17,015 nt of DNA from a virus (lineage: Duplodnaviria; Heunggongvirae; Uroviricota; Caudoviricetes): the IMG/VR virus record IMGVR_UViG_2737471853_000007, positions 1 to 17,015 of that record; one strand, given 5' to 3'. The notes beneath the pieces are model-generated. The model was not told where the DNA came from and searched no databases. It saw only the letters and a program-made list of their open reading frames with translations. Positions 1 to 17,015 of this stretch are shown piece after piece. Every line of letters starts with the position of its first letter. The stretch's first letter is position 1. Both the position numbers and the translations under genes were made by a program.

Positions 1-121
1 TATTATGCGGGATACTTACACGTCCATGTCTGATTTGAATAGACTGGTTCAGTACTTTTAATCTGGAAGTTTGTTATTTTTATTTGATTTGAAAAAGATG
101 CCATTGTAACCTCAACAATCC

Positions 122-760
122 TTGTTTCGAGTATTTATTATGATTGACTTCTTAAACCACATATTGCCTATATTATCTGCTATTGCATTCCCTATAGTTG
201 TGGTAGTAGTAACTCTTTATATAGTCTACAGAAGCGGAAGTACATCCATCATTGCTAATAAGATATGGGGGATATTCATTGGTGAGAAAAATTTCTTCAA
301 TGAAGAATTAGCATTAAAAGAAAAGGTTGAACATGATGTTGCTAAATTCAACTTTAAAGTAAATCTGAAAACCAGGAATCTCACTCAAATTGAACAATTT
401 TATAAATTTCTGGAAAAATTCGATCTGGATATAGATAACTTCAAAGGACTTCGTGACTGCTACTTGCCATCATTGCAGAAGGTCAAAAAAACATCTAAAA
501 GTGAAATATTTAATATTGGCCTGGTTGTCTTGTTAATAGGCGGTTTTTTGTTACCTATCTTCATTGGCGTGTTTATATTTAGAGACATTTCTACTTTCGA
601 CGGAGGGAAATTAGCAAATCTATTCTTTTATACGTTTTTGATTTCTGCCAGTACAGTTTTAAGTTTTAGTCAGTTACTTAGAAAGATTAAGTCAATCAGA
701 ACCCGTAAATTGATCTATAAAAAGAAATGCGAATATCTTGCAAACAGAAAGCCCATGTAG
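122..760 (+). CDS. Hypothetical membrane protein, about 3 predicted TM helices; candidate moron
   Basis: 212-aa ORF with hydrophobic stretches (ILPILSAIAFPIVVVVVTLYIVY; IGLVVLLIGGFLLPIFIGVFIF; LFFYTFLISASTVLSF) and a basic C-terminus. The track start is TTG at 122 with no clear SD; an in-frame ATG at 140 (MIDFLNH...) is an alternative start. Opposite strand to the structural operon and convergent on the tape measure gene. No recognisable family motif. Confidence 0.45.
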   Translation: MFRVFIMIDFLNHILPILSAIAFPIVVVVVTLYIVYRSGSTSIIANKIWGIFIGEKNFFNEELALKEKVEHDVAKFNFKVNLKTRNLTQIEQFYKFLEKFDLDIDNFKGLRDCYLPSLQKVKKTSKSEIFNIGLVVLLIGGFLLPIFIGVFIFRDISTFDGGKLANLFFYTFLISASTVLSFSQLLRKIKSIRTRKLIYKKKCEYLANRKPM

Positions 761-768
761 GGCTTTCT
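746..768. terminator. Putative bidirectional hairpin between convergent genes
   Basis: Perfect 9-bp inverted repeat AGAAAGCCC (746-754) / GGGCTTTCT (760-768) with a 5-nt loop, overlapping the stop of the + ORF and abutting the tape measure stop codon at 768-770. T-rich flank on the minus-strand side (TTTCTGTTTG). Confidence 0.45.
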
Positions 769-2978
769 TAAGTATTACGTCTCTGACTGCTTCTTACTGC
801 TTGTGTAACGCTGTTAGCATGCTTCTTCAACATTTCATTGAATTTCTTATCATCACCTGCAACGTCACCCTGAATGATTAAGGGAGCGTTAACGGTGATG
901 TCACCAGCAGTACTACCGCCTTTGTCCTGAGTATCGAGAAACTTAGTCAGCTTCTTGTTAGCTTCTGGCTGGACGACACGCTCACCGGCTTTCAGTACGA
1001 ATGATTTGTTATCGTACCCGGCAGGTAGCTCATCGACACCGCCGTGGAACTGCCCCGCATCAGCACCTTTTGCAGTACTGATAATGCTCAATCCAAGAGA
1101 GGCTACCTGTGCATAGTTCGCAAGGTTTTGAGGCCACGGCGTAGCAAGTGCCTGTGCAAGTGCGGATTGAATGCTTAGTACTGTCTGAGCTATCGTGATC
1201 CCACGTGAAACCATGAATGCCGCTTCGGCTGCACCCGACGATTCACCAAATGCGGCCACCATCGCCCCACTAAGGTTTTGTGCAGTATCTGAGAAGATTG
1301 TGAGTTGTTGCTGTGCATTCTGGTTACTGATATCAATGGCCTGAGCATTGTACTTTGCTGTTATCTGAGCCTTACGCTTTTCGTAGTCTTCATGACCTTT
1401 CAACAGTAAATCATTCTGTGCTAATTCAGCATTCATCGCGTCCTGATTATCATTCAGGCGTTGATCAGTATCATCATAAGCAAATGGATTACCACCATTG
1501 ATACGCTGATTTTGCTGTTGTGATAAGTACCCTTTCTGCTGATCATTTAGCAATCCAGAACTGATTAGAGAATTAGTATCTTTAAGACCTTGATTTGGAT
1601 CTGAATAGCCGACCATAGAATTAATTAGATCAGTACGTTGTTTAGCACCGGAAGTATTCGCATTCTTTAGCATTTCATCAGGATTAATACCGAGTACTTT
1701 AGCTGAATCAGTAATCGTTTTTAAAAGTGCCTTTTGCTGTCTGTCAAACTGCTGTAGGCGTACTTTAAAACCATCTTCCCCAACCTGAGCAAGAGCAGTT
1801 TCTAAATTACGTTGAGCCTGTAGCCGTTTTGCATCTGCCTGCTTTTGAGCTTGTTCTGCTTGCTTGTGTAACTGATCGGCTTTCTTCTGTGCATCTTCAC
1901 GCTGTTTGCCCTGATCTACCCAACCACCTTTAGGGGCTGTCACTGTAGCAATATCATTCTGAAAGTTGCTCACCAGACCTTCAAGATTCTTTTTAGCGTC
2001 GGCGTACTGGTTCCCCTTGCCGTTATCCATCGAGCCAGTATGAAGGGCTGCACCTTGATAGTTTAACGCCCCCGCCATGCGTAGCTTCTCCCAGATATCT
2101 AACATATCCTGTAGACTACCTTTGGATTCCTTTATACGTTGGTTAAGATCCTCAAATAATCCCGCCTCATGTGGCTTTTGATTGGCGGCATCATATACAC
2201 TGTTCATTGCATCAACTAAAGGTGAAAGGCCATCGGCGATAGTACCTTTAATATTAGTGGTTAGCTTAGTTAGATTCTTATCAAATTCCGCGTACTTTTC
2301 GGCTGCTTCATTAGTAACATCGGCGTTCTGTTGCTGGATATATGCAGTTGCATCTGCTTCATTATTGAACTGCTGTAAAGTACTAATCATATGAGATGAA
2401 TCACTTGCTAATGTTTCCATTACGTTGACAATTTCACCCTGAGATTTACCCGCATCACGCATAGCATAAAACGTATGAATAACGGCTTTCATACCGCCAT
2501 CAGTTTGTTTCAAGTACTTGTTATAGTCCTGTAGATTCAGGCCAAACTCTTTTAAATCATCAGACACGCCACCGCCAGCACGAAAGGCATCACCGAGTTT
2601 ATCTAAAGTATCCTTGTTAAAGTCTCCAAACTTATCCATTTCAAGACCAAGACCACTAAACGCCGATGATAGCTGTTGTAGCTGTACTACTGATAGACCA
2701 GTACTTTTACTGATTTCATTCATCTCGCGAACATACTCACGTGAAGACTGTACCAGTGCAGCAAGTCCACCAATACCAATAGCCGCAGCACCTGCAAGGC
2801 CAGTCATAGCAGTACTGAATCCGCCAGCCATCCCACTAAAGCGGCCTGTGAACTCTTCAACTACACCGCCAGCCTTACCACCAAATTCTTCTACTGCTTC
2901 AGTACCTTGCTGTAAAGCCCGCTGTAAGCCACCGGAATCACCGTCAATTTCTACACGGATTACATTATTCTTTGCCAT
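768..2978 (-). CDS. Phage tail tape measure protein
   Basis: 736-aa ORF directly downstream of the G/GT chaperone pair. Gly/Ala-rich hydrophobic N-terminal region (MAGGFSTAMTGLAGAAAIGIGGLAALV), long Q/A/K-rich low-complexity helical middle (QKKADQLHKQAEQAQKQADAKRLQAQRNLE), typical tape-measure composition and operon position. Confidence 0.8.
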   Translation of the reverse strand: MAKNNVIRVEIDGDSGGLQRALQQGTEAVEEFGGKAGGVVEEFTGRFSGMAGGFSTAMTGLAGAAAIGIGGLAALVQSSREYVREMNEISKSTGLSVVQLQQLSSAFSGLGLEMDKFGDFNKDTLDKLGDAFRAGGGVSDDLKEFGLNLQDYNKYLKQTDGGMKAVIHTFYAMRDAGKSQGEIVNVMETLASDSSHMISTLQQFNNEADATAYIQQQNADVTNEAAEKYAEFDKNLTKLTTNIKGTIADGLSPLVDAMNSVYDAANQKPHEAGLFEDLNQRIKESKGSLQDMLDIWEKLRMAGALNYQGAALHTGSMDNGKGNQYADAKKNLEGLVSNFQNDIATVTAPKGGWVDQGKQREDAQKKADQLHKQAEQAQKQADAKRLQAQRNLETALAQVGEDGFKVRLQQFDRQQKALLKTITDSAKVLGINPDEMLKNANTSGAKQRTDLINSMVGYSDPNQGLKDTNSLISSGLLNDQQKGYLSQQQNQRINGGNPFAYDDTDQRLNDNQDAMNAELAQNDLLLKGHEDYEKRKAQITAKYNAQAIDISNQNAQQQLTIFSDTAQNLSGAMVAAFGESSGAAEAAFMVSRGITIAQTVLSIQSALAQALATPWPQNLANYAQVASLGLSIISTAKGADAGQFHGGVDELPAGYDNKSFVLKAGERVVQPEANKKLTKFLDTQDKGGSTAGDITVNAPLIIQGDVAGDDKKFNEMLKKHANSVTQAVRSSQRRNT

Positions 2979-3674
2979 TCTTTTTCTTCCCTAAAACTTG
3001 AGTCTTAATTAACTCTCCTATTGATTTAATATCACTAGATTGTTTATCTTTTGATTTCTCTTTCCGTTCCTGTTCTTTTTCAGCAGTAGTTTTAGTACTG
3101 TCACCGAGTACATCCAGAAAATCAAAATCTTGTACTTTGATACTTTTCCTTGCTTCTGGTGTTATGTTCCCATTACTGATAGTAGTGTAATAACACTGGT
3201 ACGCATGTTTCATCATTTCAATCTGAGTACCGGATGGTTCAATAAAAGCATCGTAAATCATTAGCATATTGAGTACTTCAGGATCTAAGCTAAAGTACTC
3301 TTCTGGTGATAAGCCTCTTTTGTTAACCATCTTACAAAAGTACTTTAATTCGATATCACCCCTTACTTTTTTTCTACTTCATCCGTAGGATTTGAATCAT
3401 TTACGAGTTTGATAATTGCCGCGTATATTTCATTTTGAATGACAAAATCAATACTGTTTACATTAATGCGTCCATCAATATCTTCATCTGAAAAGATAGG
3501 ATCACCATTTTCATCTTTCGCACATAAGATTAGTGTTTGTGCAACATCAGTACATTTTGCAAAGTCTCTGCCATTTGGACGATGAATATAGATAGTTTCA
3601 CCTGCTACTTCGTAGGGTTGTAGTACTGGCTGTAGTTTCTTCATAAGCTGGTTTAAGTTCATTTGTTTCTCCAA
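2965..3674 (-). CDS. Tail assembly chaperone GT-like fusion product made by programmed -1 ribosomal frameshift (shift site at 3366-3372)
   Basis: The minus-strand mRNA at the end of the G ORF reads GAA AAA AAG TAA. The heptamer A AAA AAG (plus coordinates 3366-3372) is a classic -1 slippery site. The -1 frame is open from 3378 through the 121-aa ORF 2965-3330 (KK-VRGDIELKYFCK-MVNKRGLS...), which ends 14 bp inside the tape measure gene. Predicted fusion is about 236 aa. Confidence 0.7.
3363..3674 (-). CDS. Tail assembly chaperone (lambda gpG-like), zero-frame product
   Basis: 103-aa acidic ORF between the major tail protein and tape measure genes, ending in the slippery heptamer. Position and size match the conserved G/GT chaperone arrangement of long-tailed phages. 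Confidence 0.7.
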   Translation of the reverse strand: MEKQMNLNQLMKKLQPVLQPYEVAGETIYIHRPNGRDFAKCTDVAQTLILCAKDENGDPIFSDEDIDGRINVNSIDFVIQNEIYAAIIKLVNDSNPTDEVEKK

Positions 3675-3678
3675 TAAA

Positions 3679-3714
3679 AAAGGGAAAGTACAATACCTTC
3701 CCTTTATTTATTTT
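3679..3714 (-). terminator. Putative rho-independent terminator or attenuator downstream of the major tail protein gene
   Basis: Inverted repeat AAAGGGAA (3679-3686) / TTCCCTTT (3698-3705). On the minus-strand transcript the stem is followed by a U-run (TTTTTT then ATTGG). Lies in the 40-bp gap between the tail protein stop (3715) and the chaperone start (3674). Confidence 0.5.
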
Positions 3715-4179
3715 TTACTCACCAGTACCCGTAGTGATTAGACCTGAATCGATAGCAGCCCCATCTACAGCAAGTGTAAATGTCTTAGTTACTACTTCGT
3801 CTTTGTCACCACCGATAGTAGTACTTGAGACAAAGCACGTATAAACCACATAGAATCCGTTCTCTTTAGTAGCATCTTCAAAATAGCTTAGTTTGATTTG
3901 GCAACGCTTTTGATCATCTGCCAGTTGTTCTAATTTTTGGTGTACTGTGTTATCTGCAAGATAGTTAACCGCAAGTGAAATGTCAGGGATAGATTTAGTA
4001 CCCAATAGTTTACGGTCATATGCTGAGTTAAATGTTTTAACACTAATTACAGTACTTTCAAAACCAGAAGTAGTGAAGGTATTCACCTCTGGTACTTCTG
4101 CAAAATCAGTAGCAACGGTAGAACCCGCAGAACCTACCTCTACAGTAATATTAGCACCAGAAAAAATATCCATAGCCAT
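3715..4179 (-). CDS. Major tail (tube) protein, short form
   Basis: 154-aa ORF immediately upstream of the terminator and G/GT chaperones, the canonical position of the major tail protein. Strong SD (TATAAGGATATAAAAACT-ATG). Paralogous to the N-terminal 140 aa of the 946-aa ORF (shared MA(M)DIFSG and GDKD(E/Q)VVTK(T/S) motifs). Confidence 0.6.
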   Translation of the reverse strand: MAMDIFSGANITVEVGSAGSTVATDFAEVPEVNTFTTSGFESTVISVKTFNSAYDRKLLGTKSIPDISLAVNYLADNTVHQKLEQLADDQKRCQIKLSYFEDATKENGFYVVYTCFVSSTTIGGDKDEVVTKTFTLAVDGAAIDSGLITTGTGE

Positions 4180-4235
4180 AGTTTTTATATCCTTATATAA
4201 GTTTAATCGGGCAACGTCCTGTCACCCTTTTATAT

Positions 4236-7076
4236 TTATTTATTATCGATTAGTGATTGTACTAATACTTTCAAGTTTTCAATTTCAGTACTGAGATCAT
4301 CATTCATCTGTTTTAATGCTTTAATTGCGGCTAAACCATCTAACATCATTGGTGTTTCATCAAGATGGTACAGATCACCAACTTCTTTTACGTATTGTGG
4401 ATCTATATCCATAATCTGTTGTGAAACTACTCCACGGCGTGGTGTCTCGTCTTCATCAGATTTAAAAGTAAAGTTAACAAAGTCCATCCGAGAAATATTA
4501 TCAAGTGCAATATTGAGATCTAATGGTTCACCAATATCTTTGGCCCTTTCATCAGAGACAGCAGATGTAGTCAACTGTGCCCATGTTCCCCACGCCATAG
4601 CATTGGTTTGAACACGTGTATATATGCGATTGCTGGTGTCATAGAATCGCTGCTGATACCACTGGTTAGTAGTACCTGTGCCATTATAGTTCCCAGTGTT
4701 TAACCCTTGAGTTGCCTGAGTGAACAAAGACCCATATACGTTCGCAGCAGCACTCCCCGAAGGTGAGTTAGTCCATGAACCACCAACGGCACGCCATCCT
4801 TGAGCACCTATATTCATATCCGAACCGGAAGAATCGTATGATGTGCCATTAGGGGCAAGTCCTCCAGCAAGGCCAATGGGAGAACCATAGCCCGAAATTG
4901 GCGGTAGATATGCCCAACCCTGTCCAGTGACTGACCCAATCTTATCTCTGAAATAGAAAATAAGTCCCTTACCGGCTTCCTGGCTATTTTCAATTCTTAC
5001 CCGGCGACCTACCACATCATCACCACCACTAACATCTAAGTTGATTGCGGGCCAATCATCCCGCGATACCGTGAGTTGATTGCTGATCACTTGAGGTTGA
5101 TTGAACGTATTTGACCTGTCCAATGTCGGTACTTCATGCCACTGCCATTTACCACTGTTCAGTGATGGTTGTACGCCTCCAGCAAAGACACGATTACCAT
5201 CAGGCTGAACAAGCATTCCAGAATAAGACGGTGAACCATCATACTGTGATACAAAACCAGCACCGCCGAATGATGGAGGGGAATCAATAGTTGCTGTAGT
5301 CGTTCGAATGAACCCTTTCGGTGCATCCTTCATATCGGCAACATGGCGAGGATCTATTCCAAGCCCAACTTCTGATAGCGTCCTGTCAATTGAGTAAATT
5401 TGCTGTCCGTTCAACGTTGCTGCACTGGCTACTATTCCCAAAGTACCTTTGCCTGTTGCTGTTTCGCCACCCGATGCAAACAGACGTACATCAAAATCGT
5501 TACCAGTACCGGAACTATGCATATCAAGGAATGTCAGTACTGCCGTAGTACTACTACCCAGCTCAATACCCCTTGAAGTGGTTGAGTTGCTTCCAATAGC
5601 AATAGATCCGTTGAAGTTCTGCCCCCCATCCCATGTATTGGTAGCGTTGAGCAAAGGTACAGTACCGCCAGATGTACCAACGTTTACCGTCGCAGCCGTA
5701 CCAAGTCCAAGATTCGTTCTTGCCGCCGCAGCCGTGGTCGCTCCAGTACCGCCACTCGTTAGGGGTAATGCAGTAGAAAGGGTTAAGGTCGATAACGTCG
5801 CCTGACCGCCTGTGATAGCGACTGCGTTAGAGTTCTGCACCGCAAGGGAACCTAAACCGAGATTAGTACGGGAAGTGACAATATTATTAAGGTCTGCAAG
5901 ATTACTTGCGATCTTTAGCTGTGCGTCATTAGTAACGTTAGATAAACCAACATCGGCTTTAGTTACTGTCACATTGGATGATAATGCATGACCGTTTACT
6001 GTGATTGTTTTAGGAACCAAATCTGTATTAACATGAGTAGTTAATGTATTAATTGAATTATTAACCTCATCAATATCGCTATCAATTTGTTCTTTCGAAT
6101 ACACATCCAGATTAGTACGGGCAATTTCATTATCAGCGATATCGGCTAAATTACTGATAACTTTTAACTGAGCATCATTAGTGACATTTTCTAATTGAAT
6201 ATCTTGTTTTGTAAGTACTACATCGCTTGAAAGCTCATGACCATTAACGGTACGCTCGACGGGTACAGAACCGGTGTCAGTACTGGTTAATGTAATGTCT
6301 GCTGTTAGTGCTTTACCGTTGACGGTTCGCGTGAGAGGAACATAACGTGCGTCCATCTGTGTAGCCGTGTAGATACGAGTCCATGCCGTGGTGGCATTTT
6401 TTGCGAATAGGCTTAGTGTGCCTGTTTTTGTCATCGCAAATTCAGCAACGCTCGAACCGTCGACAAGCCCTATGCCCATCATATCGGCCCCAGCAGGATT
6501 ACCCTGTTGTGTTGACGGTATTTTGATAAAGCTGTTACCCGTTGGTGTGACTGGTGCGTACTGCGGTATACCAGTAGTGTTAGCACCTACGCCGTAATCC
6601 CCCTGATAGACAGGAAGAAGTGCAGCCATTGTCATTACACGGGCAACTACATCAGCAGGTGTAAAAGAATAGGATTTAGTAACTACCTGATCCTTATCCC
6701 CGGATAATTGAGTACCCGTAACGTAACCATTGACGATGGCATAAGTGATCTGACTTTCTTCTAAATCTAATTGATACTGAATAATGACCTGAAATACAGA
6801 TTGTGATTCAGCCATTTCATCTAAGAATTGGTGCGTAGGATCATCAGGTAAGTATGCAACCACAATATCAAATGGTTCTACTGATTTATCAGATAGTAGT
6901 ACTGTCTTGTACTCATTATCATAGGTTTCAAAATTATTTGTTTCTGACTGGATGGTTAGAGCAGGAAATTCAGTTACATTATTAATAGTAACATTGCCTA
7001 TGCCCTGTGGTGAACGGTTTCCAGTGTCCGTATTATATTGTAAAGTTAATCCCTTACCTGAAAAAATGTCGGCCAT
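4236..7076 (-). CDS. Tail fiber-like protein: N-terminal major-tail-protein-like domain, tandem fiber repeats, C-terminal intramolecular chaperone (peptidase S74-like) domain
   Basis: 946-aa ORF. Residues 1-140 are homologous to the 154-aa tail protein. The middle has tandem repeats (ERTVNGHELSSDVVLTKQDIQLENVTNDAQLKVISNLAD / TITVNGHALSSNVTVTKADVGLSNVTNDAQLKIASNLAD; RTNLGLG twice) and Gly/Ser/Thr-rich fiber-like sequence. The C-terminus (SAVSDERAKDIGEPLDLNIALDNISRMDFVNFTFKS...) matches the Ser-x4-Lys autoproteolytic chaperone module of tail fibers and endosialidases, followed by a coiled-coil tail. Confidence 0.8.
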   Translation of the reverse strand: MADIFSGKGLTLQYNTDTGNRSPQGIGNVTINNVTEFPALTIQSETNNFETYDNEYKTVLLSDKSVEPFDIVVAYLPDDPTHQFLDEMAESQSVFQVIIQYQLDLEESQITYAIVNGYVTGTQLSGDKDQVVTKSYSFTPADVVARVMTMAALLPVYQGDYGVGANTTGIPQYAPVTPTGNSFIKIPSTQQGNPAGADMMGIGLVDGSSVAEFAMTKTGTLSLFAKNATTAWTRIYTATQMDARYVPLTRTVNGKALTADITLTSTDTGSVPVERTVNGHELSSDVVLTKQDIQLENVTNDAQLKVISNLADIADNEIARTNLDVYSKEQIDSDIDEVNNSINTLTTHVNTDLVPKTITVNGHALSSNVTVTKADVGLSNVTNDAQLKIASNLADLNNIVTSRTNLGLGSLAVQNSNAVAITGGQATLSTLTLSTALPLTSGGTGATTAAAARTNLGLGTAATVNVGTSGGTVPLLNATNTWDGGQNFNGSIAIGSNSTTSRGIELGSSTTAVLTFLDMHSSGTGNDFDVRLFASGGETATGKGTLGIVASAATLNGQQIYSIDRTLSEVGLGIDPRHVADMKDAPKGFIRTTTATIDSPPSFGGAGFVSQYDGSPSYSGMLVQPDGNRVFAGGVQPSLNSGKWQWHEVPTLDRSNTFNQPQVISNQLTVSRDDWPAINLDVSGGDDVVGRRVRIENSQEAGKGLIFYFRDKIGSVTGQGWAYLPPISGYGSPIGLAGGLAPNGTSYDSSGSDMNIGAQGWRAVGGSWTNSPSGSAAANVYGSLFTQATQGLNTGNYNGTGTTNQWYQQRFYDTSNRIYTRVQTNAMAWGTWAQLTTSAVSDERAKDIGEPLDLNIALDNISRMDFVNFTFKSDEDETPRRGVVSQQIMDIDPQYVKEVGDLYHLDETPMMLDGLAAIKALKQMNDDLSTEIENLKVLVQSLIDNK
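5847..6335 (-). repeat. Intragenic tandem repeats (TVNG(K/H) fiber repeats) inside the tail fiber gene
   Basis: Three diverged copies are visible at DNA and protein level: the RTVNGKAL copy near 6314-6336, the ERTVNGHEL copy near 6241-6261 and the TITVNGHAL copy near 5991-6012. Each of the last two is followed by an NVTNDAQLK(V/I) block, and the region ends with RTNLGLGS at 5847-5870. Confidence 0.55.
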
Positions 7077-7093
7077 TTTATATCCTTATAGCG

Positions 7094-7486
7094 TTATCTT
7101 GTTTTCTCCGTAACTTGAATATTTATCGTGAATGATAAAGAAACCGAGCCAGTTATAGGGTCTGTTACGATATCGGATTGTTCATATGAGTAAGAGAGAA
7201 TGATTAAATCAGCATCCTTGAAAGCACGTGCTTTCTCATTATCAAAAGTACTGATAATCTGATCATAAGTAATTGACGGTGCAGTATTACCTGATTCTGG
7301 TTTTGGACTAATCAAGTACTGAATAGCAAAGTTACCTGCTTGTCTCTGCCCTCCAAAAGAAATTGAAGACAATGAGTAATCAAATGCTATCTGTTCAAAT
7401 ACATCTGCATCACGTGATACTGTTAGATTCTTAGTTGCGTTGATTAGTTGTTTCATTGTCTGGCGTACTTTCTGTACTAACATCAT
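7094..7486 (-). CDS. Hypothetical phage neck / tail-completion protein (position-based)
   Basis: The track ORF starts at 7564 and overlaps the upstream gene by 77 bp. An in-frame ATG-ATG at 7481-7486 lies 1 nt after the upstream stop (TAA at 7488-7490), giving a coupled about 130-aa product (MMLVQKVRQTMKQ...). No family motif recognised; the role is inferred only from its position between capsid and tail genes. Confidence 0.45.
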   Translation of the reverse strand: MMLVQKVRQTMKQLINATKNLTVSRDADVFEQIAFDYSLSSISFGGQRQAGNFAIQYLISPKPESGNTAPSITYDQIISTFDNEKARAFKDADLIILSYSYEQSDIVTDPITGSVSLSFTINIQVTEKTR

Positions 7487-7487
7487 A

Positions 7488-7811
7488 TTAGTAGTCCTCT
7501 GCAAATGAAGCACCAGCAGAAGTACGAAAGTAGCAATTAACCATACCTGACAGATCATCTTCAATATTATAAATTGTTTGGTTTACACCATCGATGATCA
7601 GTACTGTACCGATATCTATATCAGTATTAACTAAATCATCCTTTCTCATTGTTACGTATGTTTCTGTACTTTCGATAAATCCACCTGCCGCTTCAATAGA
7701 AACGGGAAGTACTTCTACAATTCCAGTAAAAGTACTTCCCGTAGAAGTTTGGATTAATTGACCGAAAGCATTTAGAAACGTATCTTGTTGACCGTTAGAA
7801 AATGCTCTCAT
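7488..7811 (-). CDS. Hypothetical head-tail connector / head completion protein (position-based)
   Basis: 107-aa ORF immediately downstream of the capsid gene (stop 7817, start 7811), tightly packed in the operon. No recognisable motif. Confidence 0.45.
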   Translation of the reverse strand: MRAFSNGQQDTFLNAFGQLIQTSTGSTFTGIVEVLPVSIEAAGGFIESTETYVTMRKDDLVNTDIDIGTVLIIDGVNQTIYNIEDDLSGMVNCYFRTSAGASFAEDY

Positions 7812-7816
7812 AGTTA

Positions 7817-11638
<3,822 letters not shown>

Positions 11639-11641
11639 TTA

Positions 11642-14009
<2,368 letters not shown>

Positions 14010-14023
14010 TTATTGAGATCACT

Positions 14024-14587
14024 ATGTCAGACCGCAACAATGATTTTTCTTTGCTGGTAAAGTTACTGAATAGCTTCCTAAAGAATGAAGATATAAAGAG
14101 GCGTCTGTATTCCTTCGTCAGTAATGAAACTAATGATTGGGAAAAATGGCTACAAATTGAATTTGAGCACTTCCTTAACAAAAAAAGAAAATATGAAGTT
14201 AAACGTGAAGTTACAGCTTTTCTTGACCCTAATAATTTCCCTGCAAGCAAGCTCTCAAAAATCGATATAATAATGAGAGAAAAAGATACCCTTTTTGAAG
14301 ACTATATCTTTATTGAGCTGAAATGTACTAAGCGTTCATCTGCCTTAAAAAGAGGATTGCAAGCAGACCATTTGAAACTCAACTCTATACAAGAATGTAA
14401 GTATCCGATGCGAAATTCTTTCTGTGTTGGTTTTCATTTATATTGCTCATCATCTGTAGTTGAAGAAATGGACAAGTATGTAACCGATACCCTTAAAGGA
14501 TCTTATGCAGTATTCAAATTATGCGAATGTCCGACAAACCGTCATTGCGATTGTGCGTTAAATGAAATAGGTGTTGTACTTTGCTAA
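14024..14587 (+). CDS. Hypothetical small protein with PD-(D/E)xK-like nuclease motif and C-terminal Cys cluster
   Basis: 187-aa ORF divergent from terS with only 38 bp between start codons. Candidate catalytic motif E (QIEFEH) ... D (SKIDIIM) ... ExK (IFIELKC) with restriction-endonuclease-like spacing. C-terminal CxC...HCDC cluster. No AGTACT hexamer, unlike the phage operon. Confidence 0.5.
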   Translation: MSDRNNDFSLLVKLLNSFLKNEDIKRRLYSFVSNETNDWEKWLQIEFEHFLNKKRKYEVKREVTAFLDPNNFPASKLSKIDIIMREKDTLFEDYIFIELKCTKRSSALKRGLQADHLKLNSIQECKYPMRNSFCVGFHLYCSSSVVEEMDKYVTDTLKGSYAVFKLCECPTNRHCDCALNEIGVVLC

Positions 14588-14676
14588 GTGCGGTGCGGGA
14601 AGCTATCTAAACTTCACACATAACTTAAAGAATCCGGTGCCGAAAACTCGCGTTCTAAGCTGGGCTGCCGGAGTAC

Positions 14677-14760
14677 CTTAATTAGTAATTTAACTTAATT
14701 AGCTTGCTTAAAAATACTTACATTCTATTTTACATTAGCATTATTACAATGTTATATTAA
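14677..14760 (+). promoter_or_regulatory. Putative promoter/operator region upstream of the DUF3800 gene
   Basis: 9-bp direct repeat CTTAATTAG at 14677-14685 and 14693-14701, immediately upstream of a -35-like TTGCTT (14704-14709) and a -10-like TATTTT about 16 bp downstream. The AT-rich context makes the exact promoter assignment uncertain. Confidence 0.3.
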
Positions 14761-14766
14761 TAGCAC

Positions 14767-15921
14767 ATGCACATTGTAGCTCATAAAGGAATGACCAAAT
14801 TGGTAAAGAATGTATATTTCGATGAATCAGGATTCACTGGTAATAACTTACTTTCAAAAGATCAGCCTTTTTTTAGTTACGCAGCAGTCGTGACTGATGA
14901 TGAGGAAAGTAAACAGTTTGTTGATTATATAATAAACAAGTACTCGATCGCAGCCGAAGAGCTAAAAGGTAGCACTCTCGTAAATAGCAAGAGATTTCAA
15001 CCAGCCGTAGATGAAATACTTAATCATTTCCGTGGTCGTATGCGTGTGGTTGTAAACGAAAAAAAATATGCCCTCTCAGGAAAATTCTTCGAATATATTT
15101 TTGAGCCAGTATTAGCAGCTAAAAGCTCAATTTTTTACAACCTTAAATTTCACCTATTCATCTCAAATATAATGTATTTTTCTTTAATAGCTAAGGATGA
15201 ATATTCAGAACTATTACATTCGCGATTTGAAGATTTTTCACGAGGTAAAATATTGGTTAATAGTTTTATCGAACCAGTTGTTGGTTCTAAAAATTCTGAA
15301 ATTATGATGGACATTCATGATTTCGCCAAGAATAACATCTCTATAATTGAAGAAGAATATGAAGGCCTTGAGGGTACTGGGATTGATAAGTGGTTATTAG
15401 ATTTGACAACGACTTCTCTTTATAATCTCCTGTGCGATATGAGTAGTAAGTTTGGTACATTGAGAGCTATATGCGACAGCTCAAAACCATTAATTACTCA
15501 TCAGGACTCATTCAATGAGATGATAGGCAATGATGAGATTGTGTTCGAGACTTTTCATGATAAAAAAATCCCGATCACATTTAAGCTATCTGAGCCAATG
15601 ATTCTTTCTGATTCTAAAGTCACGCATGGTATACAAATTGCGGATGTGGTAGCTGCGGCTAGCATTTATGTCCTTAACAAGAAAAAATCGAAAGAAAAAT
15701 ATCATTCTAAATGGCTAAATCATTTTGAAGATGAGATTTTTTATTGGCAGTGCTGTGTTGTTCCCACACCAGAAAACCTTGACCCTAAAAATGTTAACAA
15801 CCATTTAAATAGATATATTTTGCAAGAAATTGCAGAGCGAAGCAGAAACTCAACTCCTGTTTTAGATGATATTGAGAAGGATATAATAAGAATTTCCAGA
15901 ACATTAGCCATGCTACGTTGA
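14767..15921 (+). CDS. DUF3800-family protein (function unknown)
   Basis: 384-aa ORF with both signature motifs recalled for DUF3800: N-terminal DES (VYFDESGFTG) and C-terminal QxxD (THGIQIADVVAAA), within the family length range. The start is uncertain: the ATG at 14767 has no SD, and the alternatives are ATG at 14791 or in-frame TTG at 14800, 9 nt after AAAGGA. Confidence 0.75.
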   Translation: MHIVAHKGMTKLVKNVYFDESGFTGNNLLSKDQPFFSYAAVVTDDEESKQFVDYIINKYSIAAEELKGSTLVNSKRFQPAVDEILNHFRGRMRVVVNEKKYALSGKFFEYIFEPVLAAKSSIFYNLKFHLFISNIMYFSLIAKDEYSELLHSRFEDFSRGKILVNSFIEPVVGSKNSEIMMDIHDFAKNNISIIEEEYEGLEGTGIDKWLLDLTTTSLYNLLCDMSSKFGTLRAICDSSKPLITHQDSFNEMIGNDEIVFETFHDKKIPITFKLSEPMILSDSKVTHGIQIADVVAAASIYVLNKKKSKEKYHSKWLNHFEDEIFYWQCCVVPTPENLDPKNVNNHLNRYILQEIAERSRNSTPVLDDIEKDIIRISRTLAMLR

Positions 15922-15931
15922 AATATATATT

Positions 15932-15961
15932 CTCATGCTGTTTTATCAATAACAGCATGAG
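15932..15961. terminator. Putative bidirectional hairpin between convergent DUF3800 and lipoprotein genes
   Basis: 11-bp perfect inverted repeat CTCATGCTGTT (15932-15942) / AACAGCATGAG (15951-15961) with an 8-nt loop, 11 bp after the DUF3800 stop. Flanks are AT-rich on both sides. Confidence 0.5.
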
Positions 15962-16033
15962 GGTATTATATATTATTTAATTTTTCATCATGCCACATAC
16001 ACTTAATAATTCTATCTCTTTGATTTTTGTTTA

Positions 16034-16306
16034 TTATCTATATTGATGCATTTTTTTAATTCTTTCCTCTCGTATATGGCATGTAGTACTGCCATTGTCC
16101 ACCTGGTAAATCGGATTGTAGGTGCGGCCACAATCACTCTGGAACTGAGGCCGGTAGTACTTCACCCCGTTTCGTGTGCCAGCGTCGAACAGTACTATTG
16201 TAGCCTTGTTATCAACGTTGCCGACAAAGGCTTTATCCATGAATGAGTGATGTACGCTGCCGCAGCCTGTGAGCAGTACTACCAACATGACGATTAGTAT
16301 TTTCAT
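16034..16306 (-). CDS. Small lipoprotein (signal peptide with lipobox LTGC)
   Basis: The track ORF starts at 16342, but the internal ATG at 16306 gives MKILIVMLVVLLTGCGS..., a classic lipoprotein signal peptide with lipobox. SD AGGGA lies about 9 nt upstream, and the start is 10 bp after the upstream gene stop (TAG at 16317-16319). Mature part is about 70 aa with two further Cys. Confidence 0.6.
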   Translation of the reverse strand: MKILIVMLVVLLTGCGSVHHSFMDKAFVGNVDNKATIVLFDAGTRNGVKYYRPQFQSDCGRTYNPIYQVDNGSTTCHIREERIKKMHQYR

Positions 16307-16316
16307 TGTTATATCC

Positions 16317-16826
16317 CTATAGAAGTTGTTCGCATTGTTCAAAGCGGATTGGCCTGTACTCTCCCTGTACTGCCCATACCCCCGACTCTCGTAAAATCCT
16401 GTGATTTCGATTGCTGCTGACTTGTACGATCACCTTGTCGCAGTACTGCATGATGTTATTGATGAGTACCGGGAAGATCAGCCGCTCTATGTGTTCTTCA
16501 GTGAACCGTCTATTTAGTCGAACTAAGTCGTAACCGTCCGTTAGCAGTGGTTCAGCAGCCATGTACCGTATGAATGGTAGATCTTCATAGCGTGTACCTG
16601 TGCCAGTACTGAGCACGCACAACAGCCCCTTTTCTTTGAACCATGCGGCTTTACCCTGAATCATTCTTAACTGGTTCTGATAGACCACGTGACGGATATA
16701 TTCACTTTCTTTTCCTGCCCCCATCAGTACCTGGCAACCGTTTATCAGTACACGGGTTTCCAGCTCTACGCCGAGTAACATACCGTCCAATGAAGTGATC
16801 GGAATTGCCCAATGTTCGAGTTTCAT
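16317..16826 (-). CDS. Hypothetical protein with degenerate EAL-like (YdiV-like) features
   Basis: 169-aa ORF. LLGVELETRVL resembles the EAL signature region (E. coli YdiV: LVGVELITHF, as recalled), LSTGTGTRYEDL resembles the DDFGTGYSS region, and C-terminal VWAVQGEY resembles the QGY(LF) motif. It is shorter than a full EAL domain, so the assignment is weak. Confidence 0.35.
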   Translation of the reverse strand: MKLEHWAIPITSLDGMLLGVELETRVLINGCQVLMGAGKESEYIRHVVYQNQLRMIQGKAAWFKEKGLLCVLSTGTGTRYEDLPFIRYMAAEPLLTDGYDLVRLNRRFTEEHIERLIFPVLINNIMQYCDKVIVQVSSNRNHRILRESGVWAVQGEYRPIRFEQCEQLL

Positions 16827-16950
16827 GTTGATCTCTCAGTTGTCATAACTGATTGATAATTGATCATTTTTAACCATTGATCAAATTAAAATGATCGATA
16901 ATTACATTTCTACCGTTTTTAGTGGTAAGTATTTTGATGGCTGGATCTGT
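16827..16950 (-). promoter_or_regulatory. GATC-rich upstream region with repeated TTGATCA-like motifs
   Basis: Five GATC sites in about 120 bp (16830-16833, 16862-16865, 16879-16882, 16893-16896, 16944-16947), embedded in repeated ATTGAT(C)A motifs (GATTGATAATTGATCATTTTTAACCATTGATCAAATTAAAATGATCGATAATT) directly upstream of the start codon at 16826. Confidence 0.3.
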
Positions 16951-17015
16951 GCGAAATGTGATGCAATACTGTATGGATAACCAGTATTAATGTAGTGTAA
17001 ATAGACCCGTTTTAG

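Follow-up and report, generated by a model that had tools for sequence, protein, structure and literature searches.

In a 17,015-nucleotide (nt) stretch of viral DNA (IMG/VR record IMGVR_UViG_2737471853_000007, positions 1 to 17,015; "the window" hereafter), two overlapping open reading frames (ORFs), G and T, lie on the minus strand between the genes for the major tail protein and the tape measure protein. It is highly probable, judging from sequence comparisons, that the G-T junction is a lambda-type G/GT programmed -1 ribosomal frameshift in an enterobacterial siphovirus-like prophage, and we favor this reading because gene order, family membership, protein fold, frame geometry and conservation all fit it. 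The initial annotation of this DNA had proposed that a -1 frameshift at the heptamer A AAA AAG joins the G and T chaperone frames, and comparative evidence supports that proposal in 35 of 35 loci, i.e., the window and 34 usable related loci from isolate genomes, viral contigs and metagenomes. All the features that define the G/GT frameshift of phages lambda and HK97 and that sequence data can address were found. Public gene calls give G (99 amino acids, aa) and a separate, truncated T ORF of 121 aa; the correct annotation is predicted to be the 99-aa G together with a 232-aa GT, joined at position 3366. As far as the sequence can tell, this is an ordinary, well-supported G/GT frameshift site in a group of enterobacterial prophages where it is unannotated, and the value of the finding lies mainly in annotation, since it leaves the known picture of phage tail assembly and recoding unchanged. 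The elements of the junction are the following.

3363-3662, minus strand: gene G, tail assembly chaperone, 99 codons from ATG 3662 to the stop TAA 3365-3363; the product of standard decoding.
3366-3372, minus strand: slippery heptamer A AAA AAG, with AAA 3371-3369 as the P-site codon and AAG 3368-3366 as the A-site codon.
3363-3365, minus strand: zero-frame stop TAA that ends G, adjoining the heptamer in 35 of 35 loci; shifted ribosomes would bypass it.
3379-3381, minus strand: TGA stop of the -1 frame, the 5' limit of a 16-nt region in which the shift could occur.
2965-3366, minus strand: T segment in the -1 frame, 133 codons (VRGDIELK...NGKE) and a stop at TAA 2967-2965; the predicted C-terminal part of the 232-aa GT.

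The geometry of the two frames is established directly, and it bears out what the initial annotation had described: that G ends in GAA AAA AAG TAA on the minus strand, that the -1 frame is open from 3378 (its preceding stop being TGA 3381-3379), and that the downstream ORF overlaps the start of the tape measure gene by 14 base pairs (ATG 2978 against TAA 2967-2965). The 3' end of G encodes ...D-E-V-E-K-K, with GAA at 3374-3372, AAA at 3371-3369, AAG at 3368-3366 and TAA at 3365-3363. Any shift into T is confined to 3378-3366, where A AAA AAG is the sole slippery heptamer; after a slip there, the -1 frame reads GTA (3366-3364) AGG GGT GAT, i.e., VRGDIELKYFCKMVNKRGLSP..., and runs for 133 codons to TAA 2967-2965. 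Bare AAAAAAG is not enriched in the AT-rich window (5 observed against 6.2 expected). In 11 minus-strand genes, 10 of the 4273 in-phase positions fit X XXY YYZ; just one of these holds A AAA AAG, that at the G-T junction. The chance that some X XXY YYZ heptamer would fall in one of the three admissible positions of the 16-nt overlap is about 0.7%; the question is settled by conservation, because the slip site is kept in 34 of 34 related loci, which places it beyond chance.

The relatives were drawn from IMG/VR (18 loci), from GTDB genomes (two, Scandinavium lactucae and Pluralibacter gergoviae) and from metagenomes (15 loci). Identity among the 35 loci falls as low as 49% for the G protein and 40% for T, and ranges from 54 to 100% at the nucleotide level. 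Across this range, all 35 loci end G with GAA AAA AAR TAA, and the -1 frame holds T. Of these, 32 have A AAA AAG and three, from metagenomes (L027, L028 and L036), have A AAA AAA, the only variant and likewise slippery. The TGA of the -1 frame lies directly against the heptamer in 19 of the 35 loci, which reduces the overlap there to 10 nt, and therefore only the heptamer can join the two frames. Nucleotide conservation is likewise concentrated on the site: an alignment of 29 distinct G-T sequences (down to 54% nucleotide identity) has 710 columns, of which 19% are invariant, and its longest unbroken invariant stretch is GAAAAAAA, after which come G or A (R) and the invariant TAA; the next longest is 5 nt. 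An alignment of 18 distinct G-T sequences has 698 columns, 34% of them invariant, and in its G part 10 of the 100 third codon positions do not vary; here the longest invariant run is the 13-nt GAAAAAAAGTAAG, and the next longest is 8 nt. Invariant Lys and Glu residues elsewhere show synonymous codon variation in 8 of 12 columns, and the three codons of the slip site show none.

The setting of the junction is that of a tail chaperone locus. G matches the PHROGs family phrog_344, "tail assembly chaperone" (E 1.8e-6), as do 21 of 21 aligned homologues, and its best structural match is HK97 2ob9, which has the tail-assembly-chaperone fold; a sequence-profile search of the PDB with G gave nothing useful. 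The chaperone homology and fold of G, its synteny, and the nucleotide and peptide conservation are, like the frame geometry, directly established. The mechanical ORF call had begun G at TTG 3674, and this start is probably not the real one: ATG 3662 is preceded by GGAG at 3672-3669, and the N-terminus M-N-L that it provides is invariant in 21 of 21 aligned homologues. The gene order, all on the minus strand, is major tail protein, G, T and tape measure protein, the ATG of the last (2978) overlapping the end of T by 14 nt. Three further elements complete this part of the module.

3669-3672, minus strand: ribosome-binding site GGAG, read from the sequence, 6 nt 5' of the start of G.
3715-4179, minus strand: major tail (tube) protein gene, 154 aa, directly upstream of G (phrog_158, E 5e-19; Pfam Phage_tail_3, 30.2 bits with a cut-off of 24.2).
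768-2978, minus strand: tape measure protein gene, 736 aa (phrog_13674, E 8e-87, residues 3-733).

Homologues of G are found in E. coli, Shigella, Enterobacter, Rahnella and Phytobacter, and the hosts of the prophage group, which also include Scandinavium and Pluralibacter, belong to the order Enterobacterales. The names given for these homologues in the source records are "hypothetical", "uncharacterised" or "phage protein" throughout. When complete E. coli genomes were searched for distant matches to the G-T region, none was found.

Several points weigh against a G/GT frameshift and should be set beside this evidence. The GT fusion is a prediction whose support is computational and comparative; no family in PHROGs, Pfam or NCBIfam matches T, and its presumed role in binding the tube protein is proposed from its position and by analogy; no stimulatory element was supported, whether as an upstream Shine-Dalgarno (SD)-like sequence, as a downstream structure or as an Rfam match; and the run of seven A residues (A7) could let RNA polymerase slip, which would yield the same protein. 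Programmed transcriptional realignment of this kind is known from the A9 run of Thermus dnaX and from the A8-A9 runs of insertion sequence (IS) elements, where, as in the window, a run of A lies at the junction of overlapping frames. Applied to the window, RNA polymerase would add one A within A7, and the resulting A8 mRNA would be decoded as E-K-K-V-R-G-D, giving an identical GT. We regard this as an unlikely source of the fusion. The site is indeed a homopolymer run, three loci (L027, L028 and L036) carry an A8 run (G-A8-TAA, with the junction at ~1493-1504), and productive slippage on eight A has been suggested in some bacteria (PMC1088944); in most bacteria, however, both selection against slippage-prone runs and their known use begin at about nine A/T (PMC1088944), and the threshold has elsewhere been put at An with n>7 (PMC3711429). 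Measured against a run of at least 8-9 A/T, as transcriptional realignment would call for, the site falls short, with A7 in 32 of the 35 loci and A8 in three. Unlike the usual realignment sites with their eight or nine A, moreover, the 32 loci have neither more nor fewer than seven A before a G, the best ribosomal heptamer for an E. coli-like tRNA-Lys, and they keep both its phase and its 3' G. Transcriptional slippage may make a minor contribution, especially in the three A8 variants.

The peptide encoded just beyond the heptamer bears on how T is entered. Between the heptamer and the first ATG of the T frame (3330-3328) lie 12 codons in which the pattern (V/I)-R-x-D-x-x-L-x-(Y/H)-(F/Y)-(C/L)-K is kept while the nucleotides change synonymously (TAC/TAT, TTT/TTC, TGT/TGC, AAG/AAA and TTA/CTG), and in 16 of the 18 distinct versions this stretch contains no start codon. 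Conservation of the peptide, the synonymous changes and the missing start together imply that the stretch is translated in the T frame and can be entered only from G. It is therefore very improbable that T is instead made separately from ATG 3330, as a 121-aa protein that would start MVNKRGL, lack the peptide from VRGDIELKYFCK and form no fusion. This ATG (3330-3328) is invariant in all relatives, and the public gene calls do show the 99-aa G and the 121-aa ORF apart; yet nothing resembling a ribosome-binding site precedes ATG 3330 (UACUUUUGUAAG AUG), the conserved peptide and synonymous changes in the 12 upstream codons would be unexpected if these were untranslated, and the best conserved nucleotides of the whole G-T region are those of the heptamer and its adjoining stop.

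That the change of frame stems from an error of sequencing or assembly at the poly-A run, or marks a decaying pseudogene, so that there is really a single ORF, can be dismissed almost with certainty: homopolymers are error-prone, and one relative, P0001 (L021, a long-read "tig" assembly), does have GAAAAAATAAG, which fuses both frames, but 34 other loci from isolates, viral contigs and metagenomes keep two frames at 54-100% nucleotide identity, which excludes the error at the poly-A run that the initial annotation had named as a refuting scenario. L021 was considered as a naturally fused G-T gene and rejected; its neighbouring genes are broken into short ORFs, as in uncorrected long reads, so that its fusion is likely an artefact of a noisy assembly, and its A6 run (4083-4095) is probably a homopolymer miscall of an A8 site.

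The RGD tripeptide encoded just after the heptamer, which had been thought incidental, is present in nine of the 18 distinct junction versions, the rest having RTD, RCD, RSD, KTD or IES. It is clade-specific. Since GT is expected to act as a chaperone inside the cell, the tripeptide is incidental.

In the G/GT frameshift that we favor, what we infer is the slippage, how efficient it is and what G and T do, and the course of events would be as follows. Ribosomes would initiate at ATG 3662 and translate G until, at its last two sense codons, tRNA-Lys occupied both AAA in the P site and AAG in the A site. The majority would then meet UAA (3365-3363) directly and release the 99-aa G. In a minority, both tRNAs would slip one base in the 5' direction onto A AAA AA, and GUA (3366-3364) would be read as Val; these ribosomes would pass the stop and translate 133 more codons to UAA 2967-2965, producing the 232-aa GT (...EVEKK-VRGD...). 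In analogy to lambda, the tape measure protein would become coated with numerous G molecules and occasional GT ones, and the T domain would bring in the major tail protein; G and GT would both be absent from the finished virion, and both would be needed, in unequal amounts.

What is known of the heptamer is consistent with such a low-level slip. Of the heptamers tested in E. coli, A_AAA_AAG shifts most readily; the single tRNA-Lys (mnm5s2U34) of this species decodes AAA as well as AAG, and AAA is the codon with which it pairs better (PMC5009743). Because of this preference for AAA over AAG, the heptamer should be intrinsically shift-prone without strong stimulators. In lambda the ratio of G to GT is about 30:1 (PMC5009743), and prophage tail-chaperone frameshifts reach 6-7% in reporters (PMC3711429). 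Frameshifting in lambda has been reported to depend on the U34 modification of tRNA-Lys (PMC3296357). That no strong stimulator was found here fits a low ratio of GT to G, which needs none.

The search for stimulators covered both sides of the heptamer. No SD-like element was found upstream, the best duplexes with the 3' tail of 16S rRNA ranging from -1.9 to -5.4 kcal/mol at no constant position, and an Rfam search for frameshift elements gave no match. On the downstream side, where the initial annotation had called for RNA secondary structure to be inspected, one candidate can be drawn.

3305-3360, minus strand: candidate downstream helix, unsupported, pairing GGUGAUA (3360-3354), which begins 5 nt past the heptamer, with UAUCACC (3311-3305).

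In the main clade, 7-8 base pairs are possible in this helix, together with an inner CUUUUGU/ACAAAAG helix. Minimum free energy z-scores for downstream folding range from -1.2 to -2.2 and are positive in the two most divergent relatives (L017 and L018), RNAalifold gives the alignment a consensus energy of -2.3 kcal/mol, to which covariation contributes -0.07, the pair counts do not exceed those of shuffled sequences, and the GGUGAUA/UAUCACC arms are replaced in diverged relatives. On these grounds (weak z-scores, no covariation, shuffle-level pairing and loss of the arms) we reject the helix as a family-wide stimulator.

A separate observation concerns an SD-like sequence, AAGGGGUGAU or AGAGGUGAU, at 3353-3364 on the minus strand, which begins inside the stop codon of G and is found in L001-L016, L019 and L020. 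Its duplex with the 3' tail of 16S rRNA is worth about -13 kcal/mol (the variants that encode RCD are weaker, at -8.6), it encodes R-G-D in the T frame, and it is complementary to UAUCACC ~45 nt downstream, being itself the 5' arm of the candidate helix. The sequence is confined to the main clade and absent from L017, L018, L030, L032, L034 and L036. We considered AGAGGUGAU as a start signal for T and rejected it, as no conserved start codon follows it and six of the metagenome relatives lack the motif.

A more speculative view, to which we give only low odds, is that the site is a minimal, stimulator-free "shifty stop" cassette in which the ratio of G to GT would be set by release-factor action at UAA-G against re-pairing of tRNA-Lys, and not by RNA structure, with pairing between the clade-specific AGAGGUGAU and UAUCACC ~45 nt downstream perhaps tuning efficiency. 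It is prompted by the arrangement of stops, UAA adjoining the heptamer in 35 of 35 loci and the UGA of the -1 frame adjoining its 5' side in 19. With a dnaX-type heptamer, an adjoining stop and no evident stimulators, the junction offers a compact natural test case for how a low, fixed ratio is set.

Set beside lambda G/GT and HK97 gp10/gp10-11, the window has in common with them two overlapping ORFs between the major tail protein and tape measure genes, a short upstream product with the tail-assembly-chaperone fold, a downstream ORF in the -1 frame that has no start of its own, an X XXY YYZ heptamer at the 3' end of G, and an arrangement that is conserved despite divergence of sequence. The slip heptamer of lambda is G GGA AAG; the family to which the window belongs has A AAA AAG, with the stop adjoining the heptamer and an overlap of 10-16 nt. 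In further contrast to lambda, T is an orphan domain with no family match in PHROGs, Pfam or NCBIfam, and the family has no homologue in deposited phages, megablast, blastn and tblastn searches of 50,697 such genomes having returned zero relatives. Peculiar to this family, then, are the very short overlap, the stop that invariably adjoins the heptamer, the orphan T and the lack of a deposited-phage representative.

The initial annotation had also compared the site with E. coli dnaX, and this comparison holds in part. The heptamer is identical (A AAA AAG), and in an enterobacterial host it is read by the same single tRNA-Lys (mnm5s2UUU). The likeness does not extend to the stimulators: in dnaX an SD-like stimulator lies ~10 nt upstream of the heptamer, a stem-loop follows ~6 nt downstream of it, and the shift occurs at ~50% (PMC3711429), whereas at the G-T junction no SD-like element was found upstream and the downstream helix has no support from covariation. 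The outcome differs as well, in that the shift leads to a shorter product in dnaX and would lead to a longer one here. As a site, therefore, the G/GT junction shares only its heptamer with dnaX.

The junction is embedded in a minus-strand structural module that runs from the small and large terminase subunits (GpA-type) through a head-tail joining protein, a lambda-family portal and a protease-capsid fusion to two small head-tail proteins, a 946-aa tube-domain protein and then the 154-aa major tail protein. No tRNA genes or tandem repeats were found in the region. In the 52-nt gap between the stop of the major tail protein gene (3715) and the start of G (3662) lies a terminator-like hairpin with a T-run (3679-3705, minus strand), which could cause G, GT and the tape measure protein to be expressed at a lower level than the tube protein. 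The 946-aa protein (4236-7076, minus strand), which has a counterpart of 928-939 aa in relatives, carries an N-terminal major-tail-protein domain (residues 1-152, phrog_158) that shares 29% identity with the 154-aa tube protein (E 7e-17), so that the two are tandem tail-tube paralogues. After the tube domain come a long stretch that resembles a fibre and, at 841-897, an intramolecular chaperone domain (Peptidase_S74); the protein might serve to put fibres on the tube, or it might form a special ring.

At the other end of the tail genes, a DUF6216 gene (122-760, plus strand) adjoins the end of the tape measure gene in antisense orientation. In relatives it is flanked by the tape measure gene and by distal tail genes (185 aa, 207 aa, DUF6950 and Phage_Tail_Tip), and it looks like a moron inserted within the tail operon. 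The notion that the tail module ends after the tape measure gene was rejected, given that the distal tail genes continue in relatives past the antisense DUF6216 gene.

At the packaging end of the window, a DUF3800 gene (14767-15921, plus strand) lies on the opposite strand and adjoins the terminase genes. Positions 12475-16993 match one E. coli chromosome at 97.5%, with an IS3 transposase annotated within the matched region; on another E. coli chromosome the match, at 87.6%, covers just the DUF3800 gene. These matches suggest that the packaging end has undergone mosaic exchange. Matches to E. coli chromosomes are limited to this terminase and DUF3800 end. Between the two ends, one gene (7817-9643, minus strand) encodes a 608-aa fusion of prohead protease (Peptidase_S78, residues 61-150) and major capsid protein (Phage_capsid, residues 346-604).

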